A stretch of 64,000 bases of DNA, taken from assembly GCA_000002445.1 (NCBI GenBank), contig CP000068.1, positions 1,504,001 through 1,568,000 on the forward strand, in the 5' to 3' direction. Of this stretch, positions 21,476 through 21,760 are shown piece after piece (within the stretch, counting starts at the first letter, position 1; every line of letters starts with the position of its first letter). Both the position numbers and the translations under genes were made by a program. The notes below the pieces were generated by a model that saw nothing but the letters and a program-made list of their open reading frames with translations, searched no databases and was not told the DNA's origin. This DNA comes from Trypanosoma brucei. Lineage: Eukaryota.

Positions 21476-21760
21476 ATATGCACTCACAACGCACTTCTAT
21501 TATTATTATTATTATTATTATTATTATTATTATTATTATTATTATTATTATTATTATTATTATTATTATTATTATTATTATTATTATTATTATTATTATT
21601 ATTATTATTATTATTATTATTATTATTATTATTATTATTATTATTATTATTATTATTATTATTATTATTATTACTGCTTCTATTAGAATATTCCTATATG
21701 CACACACTCACAACACTCTTCTATTATTTCTATTATTTTTACTATCATTATCGTTGCTAT
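21476..21760 (-). repeat. 70-bp repeat block with a greatly expanded pure (TTA)n tract (21498..21675, about 59 units) between two core motifs
   Basis: cactcacaacgcacttc + (tta)~59 + ctgcttctattagaatattcctatatgcacacactcacaacactcttctattatttc. Confidence 0.9.

Follow-up and report, generated by a model that had tools for sequence, protein, structure and literature searches.

A pure TAA expansion in the triplet slot of a 70-bp repeat block within a silent VSG array of Trypanosoma brucei

A run of 58 uninterrupted TAA triplets in the 64-kb stretch of Trypanosoma brucei DNA analyzed here (the window) is best explained as the triplet portion of a 70-bp (76-bp) repeat that has expanded in place and that constitutes a neutral or mildly destabilizing microsatellite. 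We assign a probability of roughly 80% to this reading. The tract is non-coding and lies in the repeat's own triplet slot, where neighboring units carry 0–10 T[AG]A triplets. It has no demonstrated function; the recorded length probably holds in vivo, and the tract is most likely neutral or mildly destabilizing.

Tandem Repeats Finder (TRF) reported a perfect period-3 run of 176 bp at 21498–21673 (58.7 copies, 100% matches, 0% indels) and a direct scan returned the same 176-bp run, with 58 whole TTA units at 21500–21673. The forward strand reads TTA/TAT/ATT and the minus strand, which is the VSG-sense strand, reads (TAA)58; the A+T content is 100% without interruption. The sequence-only reading had described a pure (TTA)n tract of about 59 units extending to 21675. 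Its purity and size hold, while the end coordinate was placed 2 bp too far since the C at 21674 breaks the period. Composition does not account for the tract, because the longest period-3 run in 200 first-order Markov simulations matched to the composition of the window had a mean of 12 bp and never exceeded 18 bp.

The block that contains the tract consists of one full unit and one truncated unit (Table 1). Unit A, the full one, has a perfect core (16/16, GTGTTGTGAGTGTGTG) at 21716–21701 on the minus strand and can be aligned from end to end with the window's 17 other units. The TAA tract starts directly after the ...AGCAG end of this unit. On its other side, a gap of 7 nt separates the end of the tract from the core of the truncated unit B (21492–21474, minus strand), which lacks the TGTG and after whose CATATAG the repeat similarity stops. 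The earlier description of a tract between two core motifs is thus borne out, with a perfect core on one side and a truncated core on the other. The orphan 16-mer from a VSG 3′-UTR lies upstream of the block at a spacing that is usual between cassettes, and the same layout is seen at other blocks. Every feature of a T. brucei 70-bp repeat block that can be tested in sequence was found at this site: a GT-rich core followed by AT-rich region 2 (...ATATACGAATATTATAATAAGAGCAG-like); an orientation shared with the VSGs, with a VSG_B pseudogene ~1.3 kb downstream where roughly 1–2 kb is expected; a tract that occupies the TAA/TGA triplet slot between cores with the 7-nt linker kept; and a T. brucei genome, as three proteins of the window are identical to TREU927 RefSeq entries.

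Table 1. Coordinates of the TAA tracts, the repeat elements around the first of them, the open reading frames that it generates and the cassette downstream.
Feature	Positions	Strand	Basis or remark
Pure triplet tract (TAA)58	21498–21673	-	TRF, perfect-run scan, direct reading; least stable duplex
Second pure tract, (TAA)44–45	50260–50394	-	TRF (45 units), scan, alignment
Unit A of 70-bp repeat, core GTGTTGTGAGTGTGTG then CATATAGGAATATTCTAATAGAAGCAG	21674–21716	-	Core 16/16, alignment to 17 others
Degenerate, interrupted triplet region at 5′ end of unit A (GATAATGATAGTAAAAATAATAGAAATAATAGAAGA)	21717–21752	-	Sequence read
Truncated unit B, linker (TA)GAAGT and degenerate core GCGTTGTGAGTG/CATATAG	21474–21497	-	Alignment, sequence
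Orphan VSG 3′-UTR 16-mer, variant TGATATATTATAACAC	21947–21962	-	Motif family; ~190 bp upstream of block
Frameshifted B-type VSG pseudogene, cassette served by the block	19376–20073	-	Pfam VSG_B, local HMM
Span of artefactual ORFs from the tract	21362–21817	+	ORF listing
Poly-Leu ORF	21362–21817	+	ORF listing
Poly-Ile ORF	21400–21777	+	ORF listing
Poly-Tyr ORF	21417–21686	+	ORF listing
Poly-Ile ORF	21474–21707	-	ORF listing

To place the block in its setting, the whole 64-kb window was searched for the core GTGTTGTGAGTGTGTG, allowing up to 3 mismatches. There were 18 matches, where 0.5 are expected by chance, and all 18 lie on the minus strand. They fall into 14 blocks of one or two units each, and every block precedes a VSG or pseudogene by 0.8–2.5 kb and follows the 3′-UTR 16-mer of the preceding cassette by ~200 bp. 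The window is composed of tandem VSG cassettes, at least 14 of them, all on the minus strand and mostly pseudogenes. Pfam Trypan_glycop, VSG_B or Trypan_glycop_C domains were detected in 8 of the 10 long ORFs, and tblastn with the window's long ORFs identified 19 VSG-like segments, all of them again on the minus strand. No Pfam match at E≤1 was obtained for two long ORFs that occupy the place of a VSG in their cassettes, 47522–48946 (-) and 31038–31991 (-); their translations look like degenerate A-type VSG N-domains, with neither a signal peptide nor a C-terminal domain. The three proteins identical to TREU927 entries correspond to XP_845140, XP_845141 and XP_845142, and a separate search found a T. 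brucei VSG that is 99% identical. These accessions are consecutive and their genes lie up to 35 kb apart, which suggests that the intervening cassettes are mostly annotated as pseudogenes. The many-cassette architecture of the window is that of a silent VSG array, here a subtelomeric one of T. brucei brucei TREU927. The excess of cores, their restriction to the VSG strand, the Pfam VSG matches and the TREU927 identities confirm that the tract lies within a genuine 70-bp repeat block, as had been proposed.

The cassette served by this block is a degenerate one. Pfam VSG_B matched over 19373–19870 (E=1.1e-12), and a local HMM built from the window's own B-type VSGs matched 20073–19891 (profile 35–78) and 19870–19376 (profile 135–244) in different frames. 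The search with tblastn and the window's VSGs did not detect the VSG downstream of the block, since these VSGs are too divergent; Pfam and the local B-type HMM did. The degenerate 3′ part of the pseudogene contains a (TA)n run at 19128–19178; among 50-bp stretches, only the TAA tracts are less stable. Farther downstream, 3.1 kb from the (TAA)58 block, is the intact "atypical" VSG XP_845140 (16764–18365, -). No 70-bp core (up to 3 mismatches) was found in the ~500 bp (18366–18900) between this gene and the upstream pseudogene, and the gene may therefore share the (TAA)58 block or own no repeat. VSG 1125.4049 of strain EATRO1125 is nearly identical to XP_845140.

The upstream neighbor is the intact A-type VSG XP_845141 (23509–24969, -), with its own 16-mer at 23436–23451. 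XP_845141 clusters at 90% with eight near-identical (~99%) VSGs that other submissions list for T. brucei (AGQ49969–AGQ50166, ABQ52447); these may be variants of the gene or copies that are expressed. Two degenerate interstitial telomere-repeat patches (22685–22770 and 23200–23270), TTAGGG-like on the gene strand and the only two in the window, lie upstream of the (TAA)58 block, in the interval from the 3′ end of the XP_845141 VSG to the orphan 16-mer. Both are part of a ~515-bp direct duplication (surrounding 22580–23330) that also has GCTGCATCACTAA and TTAATTAGCAG motifs, and long C/G runs are present in the same duplication region at 22940–22955 and 23282–23323. This region looks like a fossil telomere-proximal VSG flank that was internalized in the array.

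How unusual the length of the tract is can be judged against the other repeats of the window. For each of the 18 cores we took the length of the T[AG]A run ending a few nucleotides upstream. At 16 of them it comprises 0–10 units, usually TGA-interrupted, and at the remaining two it reaches 58 and 44 units. The core-to-core spacing is 78–87 bp in ordinary two-unit blocks of the window versus 224 bp here. Elsewhere in the window, perfect period-3 runs are at most 18 bp long, except for the second tract (Table 1). This second tract ends 7 nt upstream of a 70-bp core (core 50253; 50219–50259), at the 5′ edge of a single-unit block, and it is positioned upstream of the 474-aa ORF at 47522–48946, one of the two VSG-position ORFs that lack a Pfam match. 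The two long tracts could have been copies of one duplicated cassette. This was ruled out, as outside the TAA run and the core their flanks are only 65–72% similar over short stretches, the level of generic cassette homology, and hence the tracts are independent with no recent duplication. Long tracts are found in 2 of the 14 blocks, so within this window such lengths are not the norm, and the earlier remark that typical units carry few triplets agrees with what we see at the other cores. The TAA expansion is uncommon, yet not unique, in this window. Two long tracts among 14 blocks are too few to link the expansion with any cassette property.

The recorded length could itself be misleading, if cloning in E. 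coli, sequencing slippage or assembly had altered a tract that is real in kind and whose true length is much shorter or much longer. We consider this very unlikely. A tract of 176 bp fits in one Sanger read (Sanger sequencing is what we take the TREU927 project to have used), and no invention by an assembler is needed to explain it. Both flanks are unique and the tract is in register with them, and the same window has a second tract that differs in length (45 units). By its title, a 1984 paper independently reported (TAA)90 in the VSG flank of another strain. The concern does have a basis in the literature. Gaps and unresolved regions in T. brucei expression-site clones were exclusively in 70-bp repeats (PMC2567434), which indicates that such regions are hard to finish, and E. 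coli does not always maintain AAT.ATT repeats stably (PMC3000339). Repeats that are unstable in cloning usually become shorter, however, and in that case the true length would be equal to or greater than the recorded one.

The tract also leaves a trace in the ORF listing, where it yields the artefactual poly-Ile, poly-Leu and poly-Tyr ORFs that the sequence-only reading had pointed out; these are mechanical ORFs in three forward frames and one minus frame. We give practically no credence to the idea that the tract is a coding or expressed element, either a poly-Leu/Ile/Tyr protein or a structured RNA. All that can be brought forward for it are these mechanical ORFs of 77–151 aa across the tract, and their presence in all three forward frames plus one minus frame at once is the signature of a repeat and not of a gene. 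One frame of the gene strand consists of TAA stop codons throughout, neither strand has a predicted structure and the tract falls between genes, inside a VSG cassette. The multiple frames, the lack of predicted structure and the intergenic position led us to reject both an RNA role and the reading of the homopolymer ORFs as coding.

Physically, the tract stands out from its surroundings. Its nearest-neighbor stability is -0.82 kcal/mol per step versus a window mean of -1.31, a deviation of ~4 SD at the 170-bp scale (sd 0.115). Over the 64 kb it has the lowest duplex stability, followed by the second tract. No hairpin was predicted on either strand: minimum free energies were -0.5 to -1.0 kcal/mol for 141–147 nt, and 194–200 of 200 shuffles folded at least as well as the tract strands. 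The hairpins that characterize CAG/CTG-type triplet-repeat DNA are thus missing from these predictions. Hairpins, cruciforms and slipped DNA were considered as structures for the tract and ruled out by folding both strands, the repeat unit having no self-complementarity. The sequence is predicted to favor simple unwinding over hairpin-stabilized slipped DNA, cruciforms or triplexes. Of the earlier statement that the duplex is very unstable and prone to unwinding and slipped structures, the first part stands, this being the weakest duplex of the window, whereas hairpin-stabilized slipped structures are not predicted. With easy melting and no intrastrand hairpin, the tract would act as an unwinding-prone, "non-H-bonded" region under negative supercoiling. 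TTA.TAA repeats have been reported as unwound and "non-H-bonded" (Ohshima et al., 1996, as cited in PMC4858185, PMC6237402, PMC3467770, PMC6292569 and PMC5422504), and for the triplet component of the 70-bp repeats a transition to the non-H-bonded state has been described (PMC6292569; PMC5422504).

This behavior bears on the possibility that the tract is a functional fragile site, which unwinds or stalls forks and so becomes a hotspot for breakage and recombination, with more cassette rearrangement, duplication and gene conversion. Being the weakest duplex in the window is in its favor, and the literature offers several parallels. The (TAA)n in 70-bp repeats has been described as physically unstable and proposed to stall replication and to create DSBs (PMC3467770), the triplet part was reported to be non-H-bonded and recombination-promoting when transcribed (PMC6292569), and a transcribed 24-unit AAT.ATT repeat was deleterious in E. 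coli while an 8-unit repeat was not (PMC3000339). Transcription-dependent effects may not apply here, though, as the array architecture would place the tract in a silent array and not in a transcribed expression site. Furthermore, breaks induced at silent sites gave no VSG activation (PMC3610638), genome-wide BLISS gave no clear reads inside the BES1 70-bp repeats (PMC10691351) and switching was not reduced by 70-bp repeat deletion in two studies (summarized in PMC5422504). At the locus itself no hairpin-type structure is predicted, the tract is pure, the flanking repeat elements are intact and in register and no rearrangement scar was seen at the junctions. On balance we regard a fragile-site function as unlikely. 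The sequence-only reading had called such an expansion a plausible hotspot for breakage or recombination. Plausible it is, but the hypothesis is old and unproven (PMC3467770; PMC4858185) and the site is a silent, donor-side one upstream of a pseudogene. Published evidence on 70-bp repeats as break sites is contradictory (PMC5422504 versus PMC10691351), and for this reason fragility may still play some role at silent arrays. Both R-loops and BLISS signal are on record in the vicinity of VSGs in silent arrays (PMC10691351), so that "silent" does not equal inert.

A more specific version of the same idea is that a minority of silent cassettes (2 of 14 blocks), recognizable by long, pure TAA expansions, are fragile sites of somatically unstable length that stall forks or unwind, and that they preferentially seed array rearrangements or bias the choice of donors, with tract length as a modifier. 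We judge this quite unlikely. If it were true, tract length would modify, in a tunable and heritable way, how the VSG archive evolves or in which order donors are used, and long-TAA sites would give rise to duplication, deletion or segmental conversion of cassettes. A preference of array instability or donor bias for cassettes with long tracts is a mildly novel possibility.

The preferred reading, a triplet region expanded in place, can be set out as follows. The expansion would have originated in the triplet region itself, by slippage during replication or by unequal exchange. Runs elsewhere are short and interrupted by TGA/TAG; in comparison, the purity of this tract argues for slippage in place if general microsatellite behavior applies, and it would point to a recent or ongoing process, older units presumably being stabilized by TGA/TAG interruptions. 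The role of 70-bp repeats as 5′ homology in VSG gene conversion, which the sequence-only reading took as given, is published (PMC4858185), and the minimal functional unit of the repeats is a dimer in the correct orientation (PMC4858185). By its authors' own account, that study left aside the instability that has been proposed as a function of the triplet repeats. At this block the conserved cores, and not the TAA run, would supply the 5′ homology for duplicative VSG gene conversion. With the cores 224 bp apart, the tract may interrupt contiguous homology with expression-site repeats rather than strengthen it. At a silent donor cassette, the expansion would most likely be a neutral or mildly destabilizing microsatellite.

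The consequences of a break are to be seen in the same light. VSG switching follows lesions in the active expression site (PMC3610638; summary in PMC5422504), and the position of the tract does not appear to be that of a switch-initiating lesion, as the architecture is that expected of a silent array, with at least 14 tandem cassettes and no expression site. A break in the tract should not start a VSG switch because the site is a silent donor and a switch needs a lesion in the active expression site. Such a break would probably lead to local repair and possibly to array rearrangement, with no antigenic switch.

It is still an open question what starts VSG recombination, and no study has taken apart the function of the triplet portion of the 70-bp repeat (PMC4858185; PMC6237402). 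The locus described here is defined and uniquely flanked, and it suits the measurement of length heterogeneity and fragility at a silent cassette in comparison with its short-tract neighbors. For annotation it calls for caution, given the spurious homopolymer ORFs that the tract generates.

Compared with known systems, the block closely resembles the T. brucei 70-bp (76-bp) repeats (Liu et al., 1983; Campbell et al., 1984; Hovel-Miner et al., 2016), with which it shares the GT-rich core and AT-rich region 2. It also shares with them the VSG orientation, the location 0.8–2.5 kb upstream of a VSG or pseudogene, the presence of 1–2 units per array cassette and the TAA/TGA region between cores (PMC4858185; PMC6237402). 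It differs from ordinary repeats of this kind in having 58 pure triplets and not ~0–10 mixed T[AG]A, and in a second unit that is truncated after the core. Outside T. brucei, the CAG.CTG and CGG.CCG repeats and FRA16B/FRA10B are alike in being pure tandem repeats that have evidently expanded, and the AT-rich fragile-site repeats (PMC3000339; FRA16B, FRA10B) are alike in AT-richness. Unlike the hairpin repeats CAG.CTG and CGG.CCG, the tract has no predicted stable intrastrand hairpin, and its 176 bp are far below the kilobase-scale expansions of FRA16B and FRA10B; it is neither palindromic nor homopurine. The TTA.TAA repeat of Ohshima, Kang, Larson and Wells (1996) is identical in sequence, and our calculations agree with that work, as it is cited by others, in easy melting and no hairpins. 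Their structure was observed in vitro in supercoiled plasmids, while ours is a calculation for a silent chromosomal locus.

The nearest relatives come from the VSG 5′ flank itself. As given in its title, Campbell, van Bree and Boothroyd (1984; via PMC4858185 and PMC6237402) found (TAA)90 flanked by tandem 76-bp repeats upstream of a VSG gene, and the title of Aline et al. (1985) places (TAA)n in the flanks of intrachromosomal VSG genes. Going by these titles, the tracts are alike in being long pure TAA between 70/76-bp units in a VSG 5′ flank, and the present locus shows the same arrangement of tens of uninterrupted TAA flanked by 70/76-bp units, with 58 between a full and a truncated unit. 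The (TAA)90 of the 1984 title is from another strain and locus, and the tract here is shorter (58 versus ~90 units). The tract is a further, reference-strain example of a feature described in 1984–85 and no new kind of element: in kind it has been known since then, and the instability hypothesis attached to it is decades old.
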